Assembly: GCA_010093705.1 (NCBI GenBank)
Contig: MU006089.1
Location: forward strand, 1,785,561-1,849,560
Direction: 5' to 3'
DNA from: Patellaria atrata CBS 101060
Lineage: Eukaryota
Length of the DNA: 64,000 bases
The first letter of the stretch is position 1. Each line of letters starts with the position of its first letter. The notes under the pieces are model-generated. The model ran no database searches. It was not told the origin of the DNA and worked only from the letters and a program-made list of their open reading frames with translations. Below, piece by piece: positions 18,410 to 61,919 of the stretch. A program made the translations under genes and the position numbers.

Positions 18410-18518
18410 TTTTTTTTTGACTTGACTTTTTGACTTTTGACTTTTTGACTTTTTGACTTTTTGACTTTTTGACTTTTTGACTTTTTGACTTTTGACTCTT
18501 GACTTATGACTCTTGACT
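18410..18518. repeat. Degenerate 7-8-bp tandem repeat (TTTTTGAC)n, about 14 TGAC cores
   Basis: Directly visible: ttttgactttttgactttttgac... Confidence 0.95.
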
Positions 18519-28860: not shown

Positions 28861-29460
28861 NNNNNNNNNNNNNNNNNNNNNNNNNNNNNNNNNNNNNNNN
28901 NNNNNNNNNNNNNNNNNNNNNNNNNNNNNNNNNNNNNNNNNNNNNNNNNNNNNNNNNNNNNNNNNNNNNNNNNNNNNNNNNNNNNNNNNNNNNNNNNNNN
29001 NNNNNNNNNNNNNNNNNNNNNNNNNNNNNNNNNNNNNNNNNNNNNNNNNNNNNNNNNNNNNNNNNNNNNNNNNNNNNNNNNNNNNNNNNNNNNNNNNNNN
29101 NNNNNNNNNNNNNNNNNNNNNNNNNNNNNNNNNNNNNNNNNNNNNNNNNNNNNNNNNNNNNNNNNNNNNNNNNNNNNNNNNNNNNNNNNNNNNNNNNNNN
29201 NNNNNNNNNNNNNNNNNNNNNNNNNNNNNNNNNNNNNNNNNNNNNNNNNNNNNNNNNNNNNNNNNNNNNNNNNNNNNNNNNNNNNNNNNNNNNNNNNNNN
29301 NNNNNNNNNNNNNNNNNNNNNNNNNNNNNNNNNNNNNNNNNNNNNNNNNNNNNNNNNNNNNNNNNNNNNNNNNNNNNNNNNNNNNNNNNNNNNNNNNNNN
29401 NNNNNNNNNNNNNNNNNNNNNNNNNNNNNNNNNNNNNNNNNNNNNNNNNNNNNNNNNNNN
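28861..29460. other. Assembly gap (600 N)
   Basis: Run of n characters. Confidence 1.
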
Positions 29461-29502: not shown

Positions 29503-29595
29503 TCTGTCCTCCCAGAATCGAACTGGGGACCTTCCGGTAACCGGAGCGACTTTCCTTTACAGCCGGACGCCATGAACCAACTAGACTAAGGACAG
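29503..29595 (-). tRNA. tRNA-Tyr(GTA) with an 18-nt intron
   Basis: Acceptor stem CTGTCCT/AGGACAG with A73 and C1-G72; anticodon stem TCCGG/CCGGA, loop CT-GTA-A; intron AGGAAAGTCGCTCCGGTT after position 37; T arm CCCAG-TTCGATT-CTGGG; T9 terminator just downstream. Confidence 0.93.
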
Positions 29596-51405: not shown

Positions 51406-54400
51406 ATGGGTAAAAAGTATCGGAAGAAGGGTTTGAGCAACCCCCGTTACTCTAAGCTTCCGAAGGATAAATATAGTAACACGGGTAAGTTCTTATTCTG
51501 GATTTTCATCTCACACCTTCCCGTCTTCAGATCATAGGGTCCATACTGCATCCCGCTTCTGCGTCAGATACCACTTCTGCCTCAAACACCATCTCATCAC
51601 CTGTAATATCTCCATGATTCTTCTTTCTCTCAATCCTTCCTCTTCATCAATCAGCCTTCTAACCTAGACTTCTGACTATCTGATCAAACTAACTGAGAAT
51701 TCCGGCATTCCTTAGAAATGAATGCCGGATTCCAAGAAAGGTTTAAAGGAGGACCATTCCACAAACCCTCTCAACCTAGCACAATTTTCCACCCTTCTAA
51801 ACGATTCTCAGCTGAGCTGGAGATTCGACGATACGTGTATGGACAGAACGAGCCGAAAGGAAATTCCAGGCCTGAATGGGAATCCCGACCCGAAATTCCC
51901 ACAGGAACCGAGATCCTCGATTCAGGACCTATTGAAGTTCCAACAAATATTATCAACACACCATGGGACTCAAACGAGGACTACCTCCGAACTCATTACG
52001 AACTGTTGCGGGAAGACGCAATCCGACCGTTACGAGAAGCAGTAAGCCGAATTCGCACTCTGCCTACTTCCACAGAAGCCGACATGGGCAACTCCATTGG
52101 TATTTACGACGATGTACAGATCAAAGCAATAGTACTGGCTAGTCGTGGCCTCGCAGTTCGAGTTTCATTTTCACTTGAGAGAGTGGGAAAGCGAATCCGT
52201 TGGCAACAGTCCAACCGACTAATGACCGGTTCACTAGTAGCCCTAACGCCTGTGGATGACATGTTCCAGACAGTTTGCATCACCGCCATTGTTGCTGCGA
52301 GGCCTCTCCCCGCTCTAGAGCAGAATCCGCCTCAGATCGACCTCTTTTTTGCCCGTCCGGAAGACATGGAATTTGACCCGGGTCAGCAGTGGGTCATGAT
52401 GGAAGAGAGATCAGCCTATTTTGAAGCAGATCGCCATACCCTAACTGGATTACAGAAGATTGCGAAAGAACCATTTCCATTTTCGGAACACATCGTAGGA
52501 CTGGAACCTATCATCCTCCCTCCTGCATATCTTCAGCATCAACCTATGGCGAACATGACTAGGGTGTTTCCCGATATACCATCTCATGAGTTTGCGCGCC
52601 TTGATATTCTAGGGGACTGGCCATCCAATCCATGGAAACAGTTGACGCCAGATGAACGAGACGAAGTCCGTCACATTACGCCCCCTCTCGACGATTCGCA
52701 GCTAGAAGCTCTTCAACGGATTTTAACAAAACGCTTCGCTATTGTTCAGGGCCCACCCGGAACGGGTAAAACATTCATTTCGGTCGCTGCCTTGAAGATT
52801 CTTCTCAACAATATTTCTAAGGATGATCCACCCATCATTGTAGCCTGCCAGACGAATCACGCACTTGATCAATTGCTCCGGCATGTTGCCGAATTCGAAC
52901 CTGATTTTATTCGGCTTGGCGGTCGGACCAAGGATGTCGATGTAATCAAGAAGAGAACACTGTTCGAAGTTAAGCAAGCTGACGACACCGGTGTACAAGT
53001 TTCCGGAAGCATGCTAAGCGATGCGTTCAAAGGGTTAGAAGCTATAGGTAAAAATATTCGCCAGCTGCTTTCCCCTTTCGAGCCCGGGAACGGTCCCTTA
53101 GAAGAGAAGTTCCTGCAAGGTCTGGAACTCCTTACCGAGAAACAATATGCTTCCTTGCGGCACAACTCAAATTGGGCTGTCAATTGGGATGATGGAAATA
53201 ACTGCGGAATTGAGTTTTGGCTTGGGAAGGCGCTGAAACCTGTTCGGCCCCAGAGTTTTCCAGATTATTTTGGCGTAGAGTTCGAAGAAGCAGATCTCGA
53301 GTATGAGCAACTTCTAGAACTTGAGGCAGAAAACATTGGACGCAAAGAGGATGATGACTTTGAAGCTCTTGGTGGAACAGCCGTTCTCGTTGCTGATAAC
53401 TACATAGGTAAATCATCCACGTCCGAAAAGGCCGACCCAGAGAAGCTCCTGGAAGATGATGACCTTTACGAGATACCATCAAAGTTACGAGGGAGAGTAT
53501 ATTCATACCTCCAACATAAGGCGAAAATGATAATCCGGGACCGTCTTCGAGAGTATGCACAGTCTTATGCTCAATCGGTGGTAAAGCGAAAAATCGGTGG
53601 TTGGGAGCGAGATTTCGTCTGGCTAAGCCAACAGAAGGTTATCGGGATGACCACAACAGGGCTCAGTAAATATCGTGCTCTGATATCGAGCCTCAAACCA
53701 AGAATTATCCTCATTGAGGAAGCTGCTGAGACCCTAGAAGCACCAATCGCTGTTGGATGTTTGCCCTCCGTGGAGCATCTGGTACTTGTCGGTGATCATC
53801 AACAATTACGGCCACACACACATGTTCGTCAGCATGAAGGCGAACCGTACTTCCTTAACGTATCCCTCTTTGAGCGCCTAGTCAAGAACGAAATTGAATT
53901 CAGCACCCTAAACAGACAACGTCGCATGATTCCAGAGATAAGGCGAATCCTCAAGCCGATCTATGGGAACTTAATTTCTGATCATCCATGGGTGAAGAGG
54001 CTTGAGAATCGACCCCCAGTCCCTGGAATGGGAGGAGTCAATTCCTTCTTTTTCACGCACGAATGGGTTGAAACCACAGACAGTCTCATGTCAACATGCA
54101 ACTATTACGAATCCGACATGATTGTTGGCTTCTTCAACTACCTTTGTCTGAATGGCGTACGACCCTACGAAATCACAATATTGACATTCTACAATGGGCA
54201 GCGAAAGGCAATTTTAGGGGCACTTCTCGCTCACCCTAATTTACAGAACAAATTCTTCAAGGTTGTCACGGTAGATTCATACCAGGGCGAAGAAAATGAT
54301 ATCGTTCTGCTTTCATTAGTACGGAGCAACAACAAGGGCAAGATTGGCTTTTTAAGTGTAGACAACCGCGTCTGCGTGGCTTTGTCTCGTGCGAAACGAG

Positions 54401-55576
54401 GATTCTATATCTTCGGTAATGGAGAGCTCTTATCCAATGAGAGTAGAACCTGGTCAGAAGTTGTCAATATCATGATGGGACGTAGCAAACAGGAAGATCC
54501 CCGGATGCGTATTGGTTATCACCTCCCTTTACACTGCTCCAATCACGGTAGAAAGACATTCATTGAATGTGAGTTAGCTCCTCTTCGGAAATTTCATTCG
54601 CTAACTCGCAACTTAGCTGCCTCTGATTGGCAATACGTCGAAGGGGGTTGTCTCCGAAAGTGTAGAGAAAAGCTAATTTGTGGACACAACTGTCTATACC
54701 CATGCCATCCGTAAGTTAGCTTGCCTCCAGTTTAAACTGACGGTACATGCGCTCACAACAGCATAGCTTCACACATGAAAAGATAACATGCGAACGAAGG
54801 TGTGCCCGAGCGCTCCCTTGCGGACATCAGTGCACTTCTAGCTGCTCTGAAGACTGTCGATGCACATGTTCTAAGGTTGTCGAAACGCATAGGCATAACT
54901 TTGGGGACGTTCGCCAAGATGGTCAATCACAATCTTTCCTCGGGTCCCCTGCGGCCTGGAATGCTTTCTCCGTGGGTGGTTTCCTTCTTCATGATGCTGA
55001 ACTGGATGCTAGACGGACTAATTATTTCAAGAATCCGAATGCGAATTTTCCCAATAGGTTCAACACGCGCAAGTCTACCCCGAATACTTCGCCTTTTATT
55101 TCCTCCAGTCCATCAAAGTCGACCAAGGAGTCGGGACCTTCTCATGTCCTCAAACTGATCGACGTAGACACAGAATCTGAGAGTCCAAAGTTGGCCAGTG
55201 TCGAGGAACTGATCAACCCTTTGAAGTCTACGGTCATCAACCCAGAGGCCAAGAATATCGGAAACGAGAACCCCCAAGCGTTTCAGTCGAAAGCGAAAAA
55301 GGGCCTGAACCATAAATCACCTCGTGCTAATGAGATGACCGTTATCCAGCCAAAAGGCAATTCCCAACAATCTGGTAAGTCATAAAGGGTCTTTGAGCGT
55401 GTTCTAACTCTCCGTCTTCACTCTTCCTTTTACCGGCGTTAGTCACAGTAACTTACACAGATCTAGGAATGTTTAGTTCCCTCCTTAGCAAGCAGGCCAA
55501 TGGAGCCCCGCAATCGACGGACACGCAGAGCTGGGATGATGTTGCGAAGGAAGGAAAACTCATCGATTTCGACTAG
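51406..55576 (+). CDS. ZNFX1-type SF1 (Upf1-like) RNA helicase, Hrr1/SAD-3-like (exons 51406-51484, 51716-54568, 54617-54710, 54767-55374, 55461-55576)
   Basis: YLRTHYELLREDAIRPLRE, Walker A QGPPGTGKT, TNHALDQ, LIEEAAE, LVGDHQQL, TVDSYQGEENDI, RVCVALSRAK, then NF-X1-like Cys/His fingers; introns are phase-consistent. Confidence 0.9.
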
Positions 55577-56814: not shown

Positions 56815-58359
56815 ATGCGCTGGTTATTTTCGTTTTTACTACTTTCGCTGATGAGCGCCGTACGGGCGTTGAGTGTTACAGGCCAAAGAGTCCTTGTAGT
56901 TCTGGAAGATCTATCGGAGGAGAAGCAATATAATCAGTTTTGGGCGGATCTTGAAGGTATACATTTTTTTATTTGGGACTATGGGACTGCAATTTCTACT
57001 TCGTTGAACGCACAGCTGACATATTTTCTTTGTAGAAAGGGGCTTCAATCTCAATTTCCAATCGCCCAAAAATGACACACTCTCCCTCTTCAAACACGGC
57101 GAACGAGCCTTTGACCACCTAATCCTCTTTCCTCCTAAATCTAAAGCATACGGACCCTCTCTTGCTCCCAAGATCCTCCTAGACTTCCTAAACAAGGCGG
57201 GAAATATCCTGCTGACTCTCTCCGCAAATACTCCCATTCCGACAGCAATCCAGTCTCTACTCCTAGAGCTAGACATCCACCTTCCATCTGATCGCAATGC
57301 TCTAGTAGTCGACCATTTCAACTACGACTCCGCTTCCGCGGCAGACAAACATGATGTTATCCTCACCACGTCACCCTCATCTCTTAGATCAGATGTGAAG
57401 AATTACTTTTCTGTGAACGGCCACATCGCGGTTCCACGAGCCGTTGGCCAAGTGCTAGGCAATGCCTCACCACTACTTACACCGATCCTCCGGGCACCAT
57501 CCACAGCATACAGCTATAATCCCAAAGATGACTCTGAAAGCATAGAAGACCTCTTTGCTGCAGGCCAACAATTGTCCCTCGTCTCAGCCCTGCAGGCGAG
57601 GAATTCTGGTCGCTTCACAGTGTTAGGGAGTAGTGAAATACTGTTAGATACCTGGTTCGCGGCTAAGCTGAAGGATAAGGAGGGAAAAGCAGTAAGAAAT
57701 GCGAATCGCGATTTCATTGAAGCTCTGACCGCGTGGACGTTCCACGAAATCGGTGTGCTGCAAGTTGGACGATTAGAACATCAGCTCACCCTACCGGGCT
57801 CATTGAGGAATTCAACTAGCGTTCAGTCTAACACAGAACTGAGCCCTAAGATCTATCGCGTTAAGAATGATGTCGTAAGTTTCAGTAGATAGCTCCCTCT
57901 CCGAACTCCATTATGCTAACGAACGAGCCCCAGACCTTTACAATCGAGCTCTCAGAATACTCCCTGAACCGCTTTATCCCTTTCTACCTCCCCGATTCTG
58001 ACGCCCTCCAGCTCGAATTTACCATGCTCTCCCCCTACCATCGACTCTCCCTCGTCCCCATCGCACATACCCCCAACAGCACCATTTTCCGCACCCATTT
58101 CACGCTACCGGACCAACACGGCATCTTCAACTTCCGCGTTAATTATAAGAGGCCATTCTTGTCAAATATTGACGAGAAGAGACAAGTTACTGTTAGGCAC
58201 TTTGCCCACGACGAGTGGCCGCGTAGTTGGGCGATTAGCGCGGCGTGGGTGTGGATGGCGGGGATTGCGGCGGTCGTGGTGGGTTGGGTTGGGTTCGTGG
58301 GTTTGTGGTTGTGGAGTGAGCCGACGGATAGGGTGGCGAGAGGGAAGAAGACGCAATAG
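56815..58359 (+). CDS. WBP1: Oligosaccharyltransferase 48-kDa subunit Wbp1/OST48 (exons 56815-56956, 57036-57874, 57934-58359)
   Basis: Signal peptide, QARNSGRF, LEFTMLSPY, LPDQHGIFNFRVNYKRP, VRHFAHDEWPRS, C-terminal TM helix plus KKxx ER-retrieval signal (KKTQ). Confidence 0.95.
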
Positions 58360-59920: not shown

Positions 59921-60595
59921 CTACAGTAAGCCTCCCACGATAGCTGTCTGCAACTCACAACTCACCTCCATATTCTTCATCTCCCCCAATATAATACTAG
60001 CCCTGCTCTCTACCCATCTCGGCCCCTCAACCGTCATCGCAATACTATGCCCCCACCCCTCCACCTCCTCGCGGCCAGTAGCTAGCTCCTTCATCATAGC
60101 AAGTCGCTGCTCTTTAGGCATGACGTAACGCAGTTGCGCTACTTGCTCAGTAGGTGTGAGGTTCTCCTCTGCAATGGTCTCTTTAACAGACGGATGGCTC
60201 GTCGTGCCTTCGTACCAGAGCTCGTTCCTTGACAGGGTGGAGCGCAAGGGAATATAGCGCGCGGTGCTGAGAAGCATCTCCCAATGGACAGTCTTCTTTT
60301 CTGGAAGCTCTGATGGACTGAGGGGGTAATCAGACACCGGCTTCTTGAGGATTGATTTGAGTGCTAGAGGGGACTTACCATTTAGGTTTGGGAAAGTGGG
60401 TAGAGGGTAAAATCCTGTGGGGGATGATTTGGACGGGACATCGAGACGTGGAAGTTTGAAAGGAGGAAACGAGCGAAGAGGGTATGATGGCGGAATAGAC
60501 TCATCTTCTGAGCTCCAAGGAGGCTCTGAACTAGACTTCGAACTAGACTCCTCGTAGAATCCTCTACGACGCTTGATCCCGCGTGTTTCTACCAT
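59921..60595 (-). CDS. Orphan protein with SILK and RVxF-type motifs
   Basis: 224-aa ORF with ATG; KSILKK and KKTVHW; TATA-like TATATAAA upstream (~60710-60717); a terminal intron (GTGAGT at ~59965) may change the C-terminus. Confidence 0.65.
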   Translation of the reverse strand: MVETRGIKRRRGFYEESSSKSSSEPPWSSEDESIPPSYPLRSFPPFKLPRLDVPSKSSPTGFYPLPTFPNLNGKSPLALKSILKKPVSDYPLSPSELPEKKTVHWEMLLSTARYIPLRSTLSRNELWYEGTTSHPSVKETIAEENLTPTEQVAQLRYVMPKEQRLAMMKELATGREEVEGWGHSIAMTVEGPRWVESRASIILGEMKNMEVSCELQTAIVGGLL

Positions 60596-60942
60596 GTTAG
60601 GTTCGAATTGGGTAGGAGTGAGCAGATGTTGTTGTTGCCTCCTATGTTATGGTGATTGGTTTGGAAAAGGATTTTGAAAAAAGAAATTGGAGTAGAGATT
60701 CTACACATCTTTATATACGCTATTAGATGAATTGAATAGTAACACTGAAGCTGTTTTGAGGGGTGTGTATCGGTACAATGTTCCCCTACAGTAATTTGAG
60801 AAAAGAAAGAAGATTTCTGGCTTTCATAAATGCCTTCACATCCATTCATTATATGTAAGACGTCTTGTCCCCTGTGATCAAATTCACTAAATCCTCTTCG
60901 AACCTTAAATACAACTCCGGTACGGACTATTTTTATAACCCA

Positions 60943-61091
60943 GGGCTTGTGGTCTAGTGGTGGAATTCCCCCACCACACCGATCAGGCCGTGTCACTAAC
61001 ACGTCCTAGGTTCGATTCTAGGCCTCGTCGGCCGGCAGATGTACCGCGCTCCCACTATATAGGGGGGGTAGCAGAACTGTTTTGCTTTTTT
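60943..61091 (+). ncRNA. Putative Pol III-transcribed, tRNA-related structured ncRNA or SINE-like element (not a canonical tRNA)
   Basis: A box TGGTCTAGTGG (60950-60960), B box GGTTCGATTC (61009-61018), T4/T6/T5 runs at 61080-61098; several complementary stems; no acceptor stem or anticodon arm. Confidence 0.6.
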
Positions 61092-61919
61092 ACTTTTTCT
61101 CATTTTTAACAAAGTAGGTATATTTCTCATGAGTATTTCTGCAGGGAAGATGTGGTAGAGCATTTATTTTAGTGTTGGTGTTCGTTTTAGTGGTAGTGGG
61201 ATGTGGTATTGGATTTTATGACCGAGGGAGAACTGAAAGGCTCCTTATAGTGACCCTGGTTCAGTTTAATTTATCAACTTTATATATACTATAGCATGAT
61301 AATGCTTTAAGAAAACATGGGGAACAACTAAGTTTATCACCTCTCCAGATTTGGAATAGAAGAGATATAGAATACTAGATTGATGAGTAACAGATTAAGG
61401 GAGAAACCTAGTACAAGTACTGGAGTATAAAGGTCAAACACTTTGTTAAGCAACAAGTCGAGTGTAAGCAGACTTCTCCTCATCCTGGTAGGATAATGTA
61501 TCTACTTGCAAGAGATAGATACCCCTTGGTAAATTCGGTGATTTCAGTCATGCTGATGAACTTGTCAAGGTGAGGTTGAAGAATGACCCTTACGCTAACC
61601 ATAAGAGGTCATATGTAGCGCTGTGTGGTCATAGCTTCGAGTTATATTCCCAGTCGAAGTGACAAAGTGGGAAACGAACAACTGACTCATTATTCGGTCT
61701 GAACCTTTGCCATAAAATATGGCAAAGATACCCTCGTGGAGGAGGCATATAAAGCAGGGTTCCGCCACTGAAAAGATTATATTTTTCCGTAAAAGATATC
61801 TTTTCCGTTTTGAACCTCATTTGCTGCCCCTTGTGCGAGCGCTGTCCTAGAAATAAGTCATAAAAAGGAAGAACCATCCATCTCAACCTCCCTCACCAAC
61901 TACCTAAAGTATACGGGCT

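Follow-up and report, generated by a model that had tools for sequence, protein, structure and literature searches.

A tRNA-headed element with Pol III-type motifs in an ascomycete genome, possibly one of a low-copy family of decaying dispersed repeats

The segment at about 60943-61098 of the window (the whole stretch of 64,000 nucleotides analysed here) opens like a tRNA gene and closes on oligo-T runs, which raises the question of whether it is a tRNA gene, a gene for a singular functional RNA with newly gained stems, as the initial annotation had proposed, or a copy of a dispersed repeat. The window is eukaryotic and its genes are intron-bearing; a conserved exon of the OST48 gene at 57020-57892 has its top matches in Dothideomycetes at 69% identity, with Lecanoromycetes next (Pfam, atlas), which places the host in the Pezizomycotina, the named matches including no close relative. 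The element occupies an intergenic space of ~1.3 kb between a minus-strand ORF of 241 aa (59921-60646), the 5' part of which ends near 60646, and a plus-strand ORF of 123 aa beginning at ~61908, the two flanking ORFs being divergently oriented. Elsewhere in the window, a plus-strand ORF of 998 aa (51718-54714) with ZNFX1 and superfamily-1 helicase domains (AAA_11/AAA_12) represents an NFX1-type helicase gene, unrelated to the element.

Pol III-type motifs and the absence of a tRNA

Inspection of the locus revealed the following Pol III-type features:

60905 to 60942, plus strand: upstream stretch with a TATA-like sequence TTTTTATAAC (60930-60939) and CCCAG abutting the head; a weaker, indel-bearing likeness to it occurs in other copies
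60943 to 60961, plus strand: tRNA-like head GGGCTTGTGGTCTAGTGGT, comprising the acceptor 5' strand and the D arm
60950 to 60960, plus strand: A box TGGTCTAGTGG, one mismatch to the consensus
61009 to 61019, plus strand: B box GGTTCGATTCT, one mismatch to the consensus GGTTCGANNCC
61080 to 61098, plus strand: T-runs, T4 (61080-83), T6 (61086-91) and T5 (61094-98), candidate Pol III terminators

The boxes were scored against the A-box consensus TRGCNNAGTGG and the B-box consensus given above. All the promoter and terminator motifs reported in the initial annotation were recovered, namely the A box, a B box about 50 nt after it (59 nt start-to-start, with 48 nt between the boxes), the oligo-T terminators and the AT-rich upstream sequence, whose A+T content amounts by manual count to ~63% over the 43 nt of 60900-60942 vs ~53% as the window average. 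The composite of an A box with at most one mismatch, a B box with at most one mismatch 30-90 nt further on and a T4 within 110 nt was found once in the window vs six times across 100 first-order Markov simulated windows, both strands being counted. As judged from its motifs, the element possesses the A box, B box and T-run by which a type-2 Pol III unit is defined. TFIIIC would probably still be able to bind the two boxes, TFIIIB would be placed upstream of ~60930-60942, and transcription by Pol III from ~60935-60943 to the T6 run would yield a U-tailed RNA of ~145-155 nt.

The same boxes may also be considered at the DNA level. Extra-TFIIIC sites act as boundaries in yeasts, and a TFIIIC-bound site between two divergent genes could have such a function here. 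The quality of the B box and its position in the space between the minus-strand and plus-strand ORFs agree with a boundary role, but such a position is equally typical of ordinary tRNA genes and neutral insertions, and we consider this role highly improbable.

Several other short matches and repeats were noted around the element. The 8-mer TCGAACCT at 60898-60905, ~100 nt upstream, is the exact reverse complement of the B-box core AGGTTCGA, and could be either a chance match or what remains of a tRNA-like piece in inverted orientation. Directly 3' of the T-runs, positions 61140-61215 contain an imperfect G/T-rich direct repeat (TTTTAGTGTTGGTG / TTTTAGTGGTAGTG) together with GTGGTAG-like words, partly complementary to portions of the element. 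Finally, T-rich tandem repeats of an 8-nt unit, located at 18428-18486, produced staggered BLAST matches to the T-run region of the element.

A working tRNA gene of non-canonical type, with an odd intron position or a split structure, would account for the head, the T-arm-like hairpin with its TTCGA loop and the T-run, all of which resemble those of a tRNA gene. However, ARAGORN at default thresholds, with and without intron mode, detected no tRNA at the element, its sole call in the window being a tRNA-Tyr, and none of 1764 single-deletion variants, in which a putative intron of 4-59 nt was cut in silico from 60950-61012, was called as a tRNA (0/1764). The Rfam search that the initial annotation had suggested (Rfam 15) gave no match at gathering scores across the 64-kb window, and the tRNA model was silent even at E<=10 on fragments of 451 nt and 99 nt; below the thresholds, two chance matches appeared on the minus strand, one to a Mycobacterium sRNA (14 bits vs 45) and the other to a bacterial L31 leader (10.9 vs 33.2). 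In structural terms, the acceptor strand has no 3' partner beside a T arm, since CCTCGTC does not pair with GGGCTTG, as had been stated initially and as the pairing check confirmed, and the T stem is out of register, with 5 bp closing an 8-nt loop. Because both the acceptor and the anticodon stems have been lost from the tRNA part and ~15-17 bases are extra, the element is unable to make a tRNA, and the predicted RNA, missing the acceptor stem, would not be a substrate for tRNA end processing. The initial view of the element as something other than a tRNA is thus borne out; the tRNA-gene reading is close to refuted, and a working non-canonical gene is barely credible. Class-II tRNA, snoRNA (C/D or H/ACA boxes), the SRP Alu domain and U6 were also considered and rejected, with no box matches by eye and Rfam silent.

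The tRNA-Tyr(GTA) gene of the window is located at 29503-29595 on the minus strand and contains an 18-nt intron in the ARAGORN intron mode, while the no-intron mode reads it as tRNA-Thr(TGT). It is followed by a 7-nt spacer and a T9 run, adjoins a gap of 600 N (28861-29460), and was left unlisted by Rfam at gathering scores.

Regarding the parent gene, the initial annotation had recognized a tRNA-Pro head, of which the tRNA-like character stands and the Pro specificity does not. In particular, the 13-mer GTGGTCTAGTGGT, a string that occurs in 71 papers, is found unchanged in 5' fragments of human tRNA-Glu-CTC, and the head plus D arm agree by eye with such a fragment at 20 of 26 columns, among them the GGA.TTC that follows the D loop (both comparisons being with fragments given in excerpts of their source), so that the Pro label is non-specific. 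On this sequence comparison, Glu appears at least as good a parent as Pro. Presumably the head and the CTAACAC loop also resemble yeast tRNA-Pro and tRNA-Val.

Predicted fold of this copy

The predicted secondary structure of the element includes the following parts:

60957 to 60977, plus strand: hairpin S1, GTGGTGG/CCACCAC, 7 bp (7/7 pairs), loop AATTCCC
60979 to 61031, plus strand: three-way junction, in which stem S2 (60979-88 / 61022-31, 9/10 pairs) encloses S3 and S4
60989 to 61003, plus strand: hairpin S3 GTGTCACTAACACG, 5/5 pairs
61005 to 61022, plus strand: T-arm-like hairpin S4, 4/4 pairs
61048 to 61069, plus strand: 3' hairpin around CCCACTATATAGGGGG, a palindrome, with -9.3 kcal/mol for 61048-61072

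All six stems named in the initial annotation are present pair by pair, among them the 4+5 pairs of a stem between the 5' and 3' ends of the element. The 82-nt core (60952-61033) folds with -32.6 kcal/mol and a z-score of -4.26, none of 200 shuffled sequences being as good, and its MFE structure, identical to the centroid, consists of exactly hairpin S1 and the three-way junction (S2 around S3 and S4) that had been proposed. The comparison with shuffled sequence, which the initial annotation had also advised, is therefore clear for the core, but only marginal for the whole 142-147 nt (z -1.81, 7/200 shuffles; z -1.45, 29/300 in a second run). The proposed pairing of the 5' end with 61043-51 fared less well: the 4+5 pairs can form, but the end-to-end stem is absent from the MFE structure of the full-length RNA, the global fold with paired ends reaching -39.3 kcal/mol (-42.1 kcal/mol when enforced) vs -53.0 kcal/mol for the MFE. 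Moreover, all segments tested fold as stably on the minus strand as on the plus strand (core z -3.56 vs -3.82), which means that the stems are DNA palindromes, with no G-U asymmetry marking one transcribed strand.

A family of diverged copies in the same genome

Contigs of two sequencing runs, X1 and X2, which derive from the same sample and study (probably DNA), were compared with positions 60500-61500 at >=80% likeness; these are the only two runs listed as carrying the stretch, with no RNA run among them, and probably the window's own source. One contig per run spans 60500-61500 without any difference. In addition, five further X1 contigs are 84-92% identical to portions of the element:

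60935 to 61031: X1 copy, 15 mismatches in 97 positions
60941 to 60989: X1 copy, 7 mismatches in 49 positions
60954 to 60989: X1 copy, 4 mismatches in 36 positions
60954 to 60989: another X1 copy, 3 mismatches in 36 positions
60970 to 61024: X1 copy, 9 mismatches in 55 positions

The word depth of these five copies (313.9-332) is that of the source-like contig (323.4), which identifies them as single-copy loci of the same genome. Run X2 contains the same set of copies and at least one more variant of the head. The summed depth rises ~4.5-fold over 60942-61009, whereas 60500-60907 and 61112-61500 show single depth in both runs; in X1 single depth is reached already from 61044, while X2 retains slight extra depth at 61044-61111. 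No second copy was detected by BLAST within the 64-kb window.

The other copies are visible as aligned blocks with 30-nt loose ends, and their comparison with the window was made by eye, without statistics. Read in this way, they continue past the aligned blocks on both sides with a recognisable, indel-rich likeness of ~60-75% flank identity. Upstream, the likeness between copies reaches 20-40 nt before the head in three loose ends (by eye), which display ACT.CTTTCC.ATAT.CCCAG-like sequence in common with the window's ACTATTTTTATAACCCAG; directly upstream of the head, 14 of 19 columns are identical by eye in rec4/5, and rec2 shares GACTA-TTT and ACAAC blocks with the window back to ~60905. Variation among the copies is greatest in the first 10, acceptor-like nucleotides (GGGCTTGTGG; GGATTTATGG; GATACCCATGG; AGACCCGCGG), and the best-conserved family segment is 60954-60989, which contains hairpin S1 (3-4 mismatches per 36 positions in two copies). 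All five other copies overlap at 60970-60989. The uneven conservation, with a core at 84-92% and flanks at ~60-75%, could reflect constraint, and the picture is biased because the aligner reports only the best-matching segments.

The copies differ in how much of the predicted structure they keep. Every copy in which the 5' strand of S1 falls within the loose end retains that strand, and the changes observed in S1 are either in its loop (T>A at position 60966, four contigs) or extend its stem (rec6, GTGGTGGG...CCCACCAC); the 3' strand is readable in few copies, its mismatches in the shorter aligned pieces being unlisted. Hairpin S3 is not kept: in the loose ends behind 60989, rec3-type copies read AAAACCAACCGG or AAAACCAATTGG vs GTGTCACTAACACG in the window. 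The B box reads GGTCGAATC or, in degenerate form, GGGCGAACC. The S2 3' strand of rec6 carries three differences by eye and could still pair, while the end stem, GTGGT/ACCGC in the window, is reduced by eye to 3/5 pairs (ATGGC/ACCAC) in rec6, the only copy in which it is readable. Beyond S2, two other copies share a further module with the window, preceded by 5-6 extra bases:

61032 to 61053, plus strand: 3' module CCGGCAGATGTACCGCGCTCCC, read as CCGGCAGACTACCACG... or CAGCAGACTACCACGTTCCCC in two other copies (loose ends behind 61024 and 61031)

On these sequence comparisons, consistent retention among the copies is apparent only for hairpin S1 and the A-box region.

The likeness beyond both interval ends, which can still be made out by eye where the 30-nt loose ends stop, raises the alternative that the tRNA-like piece lies inside a longer and older repeat (such as a segmental duplication, a MITE or another transposon that is not a SINE), the outer parts of which have fallen below 80% identity and the boxes of which are relics without a role. 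An upstream likeness is, indeed, unexpected for a Pol III retroposon. Nevertheless, X1 shows no repetition beyond 60935-61031 at >=80% and X2 a little extra depth at 61044-61111, no second copy exists in the 64-kb window, and no terminal inverted repeats bracket the element, the only arm pair being the 8-nt one of 60898-60905 / 61008-61015, which is the B box itself. An origin within a longer repeat thus seems quite unlikely.

A second alternative is that the copies form a small multigene family of functional, structured Pol III ncRNAs of ~150 nt, exapted from a tRNA gene and comparable in origin to RNAs of the BC1/4.5SI type. The near-consensus A and B boxes and the T-runs, the strongly non-random core fold (no shuffle in 200 as good), the A-box/S1/ACCGATCAGGCC segment common to all five other copies and the confinement of S1 changes to its loop or to a lengthening of its stem would all fit such genes, as would the lack of an A-tail and of a target-site duplication; an upstream likeness that includes the TATA-like sequence is expected of gene copies with an upstream promoter and not of retroposed copies. 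In its most explicit form, this alternative envisages ~6-7 genes for an undescribed ~150-nt Pol III RNA in a poorly sampled Pezizomycotina lineage, derived from an exapted Glu/Pro-type tRNA, with conserved upstream promoter, A-box/S1/ACCGATCAGGCC core and 3' module and with a three-way junction containing a T-arm-like hairpin. If true, it would add a rare fungal tRNA-derived Pol III RNA gene family to tRNA, 5S, U6, 7SL and RNase P. Against it, S3 is lost in rec3-type copies, the end stem of rec6 retains 3/5 pairs, some B boxes are degenerate, 5-6 nt indels separate S2 from the 3' module, the fold of the minus strand is no less stable, that of the whole length is marginal, and Rfam contains no matching family. 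We regard a functional family as possible though unlikely, and its explicit gene-by-gene version as doubtful.

Searches outside this genome bear on the functional alternative to a small extent. A metagenome scan with the pattern TAGTGGTG-N6-9-CCACCACACCGA, which is too loose at its 3' end, yielded no homologue among 47 loci, none of which continues like the element: 44 came from an unrelated MITE-like repeat sharing the words by accident and three were chance matches in coding-like sequence. The element core had no match in the collections of prokaryote genome contigs or of viral contigs. Since these are not fungal genome sets, the lack of an outside homologue counts for little. A full-text literature search with four core strings of the element likewise gave no match. 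The repeat behind 44 of the 47 metagenome loci (L001-L047; e.g. L007:1501-1731) is one element of ~150-190 nt in two size variants, with an internal palindrome, short duplicated flanks and terminal inverted repeats of ~21 nt (GAATGGCACTTAGTTAAGAGC ... GCTCTTAACTAAGTGCCATTC); its appearance is that of a MITE dispersed among a set of related metagenomes, and it is unrelated to the tRNA-headed element.

We favour, with a rough probability of 0.58, the reading of the element as a member of a low-copy, decaying family of tRNA-derived dispersed repeats, possibly still transcribed by Pol III. The family consists of this copy and at least five other diverged loci in this ascomycete genome, and probably descends from a tRNA gene whose D arm was of the Glu/Pro type. 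It would have spread by SINE-like retroposition or by DNA-level duplication and would now undergo mostly neutral decay; of the dense stems in this copy, S1 and the T-arm would be inherited, while S3 and the end stem would be private to it. Judged from the aligned sequences, the copies look like members of a repeat family in which the promoter-proximal core is conserved and everything else drifts freely, and not like versions of an RNA maintained by selection on its entire fold. This is the best explanation for the combination of a missing tRNA, a rare composite of A box, B box and T-run, the existence of a family, the failure to keep S3 and the end stem and the lack of strand asymmetry in the fold, and it has a precedent in AfuSINE2. 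Counted against it are the missing SINE hallmarks, the upstream likeness, the uneven conservation, the strongly non-random core fold and the S2 of rec6, which can still pair. The two central proposals of the initial annotation are not supported in this light: the element is not singular, having at least five further diverged copies, with S3 lost, the end stem at 3/5 pairs and no strand preference of the fold, and the replacement of S3, the weakened end stem of rec6 and the equal folding of the minus strand speak against stems gained under selection. On the favoured reading, many stems in a single copy are weak evidence for a functional RNA when some of them are private and the reverse strand folds equally.

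Comparison with SINEs and other tRNA-derived elements

Two properties of SINEs were observed, namely a tRNA-related 5' region with an internal promoter and dispersed copies, the latter at low copy number (at least five other contigs). Target-site duplications were sought at 60800-61200, where only weak matches of 8-17 nt flank the element, a weak negative since old duplications may have decayed. At the 3' end, no A-rich, simple-repeat or recognisable LINE-like tail was found, the sequence reading GGGGGGGTAGCAGAACTG and then the T-runs on the transcribed strand. The initial annotation had held that many dispersed copies with target-site duplications would mark an ordinary SINE; at least five diverged copies are indeed present, but the duplications were not found. 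As the element shows no target-site duplication and no tail, and as its copies look alike by eye upstream of the head, it is called a SINE-like dispersed repeat and not a SINE. In particular, the upstream likeness seen by eye extends over ~40 nt, further back than a Pol III transcript started 10-20 nt before the A box would reach, so that simple retroposition would not explain the family.

Vault RNA has internal promoter elements of the A/B type, and vault and Y RNAs have a stem joining their 5' and 3' ends. The element resembles them in its A/B-type internal elements (as in vault RNA) and in a possible 5'-3' end stem, but differs in lacking an Rfam match and in an end stem that lies outside the MFE structure and is reduced to 3/5 pairs in one other copy. 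Rodent BC1 and 4.5SI RNAs are tRNA-derived Pol III ncRNAs that are expressed and conserved within their clades. The element shares with them a tRNA derivation, internal A/B boxes, a possible contribution of an upstream TATA-like sequence, a predicted short structured RNA and a T-run; unlike them, it is known here from sequence alone and loses part of its predicted structure between copies. For 4.5SI genes, the excerpted source gives A/B boxes together with a TATA-like box at -31/-24 (PMC10137851).

Ordinary tRNA pseudogenes also combine a D arm, a T arm and Pol III boxes with disrupted acceptor and anticodon stems and are followed by a T-run. Unlike such pseudogenes, the copies described here have in common both their non-tRNA insertions and a 3' module (CCGGCAGA..ACC.CG), which indicates that the non-tRNA form itself was propagated and argues against an independent decay of several tRNA genes.

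Among described elements, those that come closest in our comparison are the low-copy AfuSINE2 of Aspergillus fumigatus. According to the excerpts of their description, they measure 140-493 bp, have degenerate A/B boxes, do not form a cloverleaf and number from one to at least four or five copies, five of eight families being transcribed; target-site duplications of 4-14 bp and tails that are A/T-rich or made of simple repeats are also reported for them (PMC5063351). The comparison was by description and not by sequence, and on that basis this copy differs from AfuSINE2 in showing neither target-site duplication nor tail (PMC5063351, in excerpt); the copies here, moreover, seem by eye to share sequence over ~40 nt upstream of the tRNA-like head. 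If the favoured reading as a decaying repeat family is true, this would be one more low-copy tRNA-derived repeat family among the few described in filamentous ascomycetes. As far as the excerpted description goes, the element has in common with AfuSINE2 a Pezizomycotina host, a similar size class, a tRNA-related 5' part with A/B boxes and without a cloverleaf, a very low copy number and gene-rich surroundings (PMC5063351).
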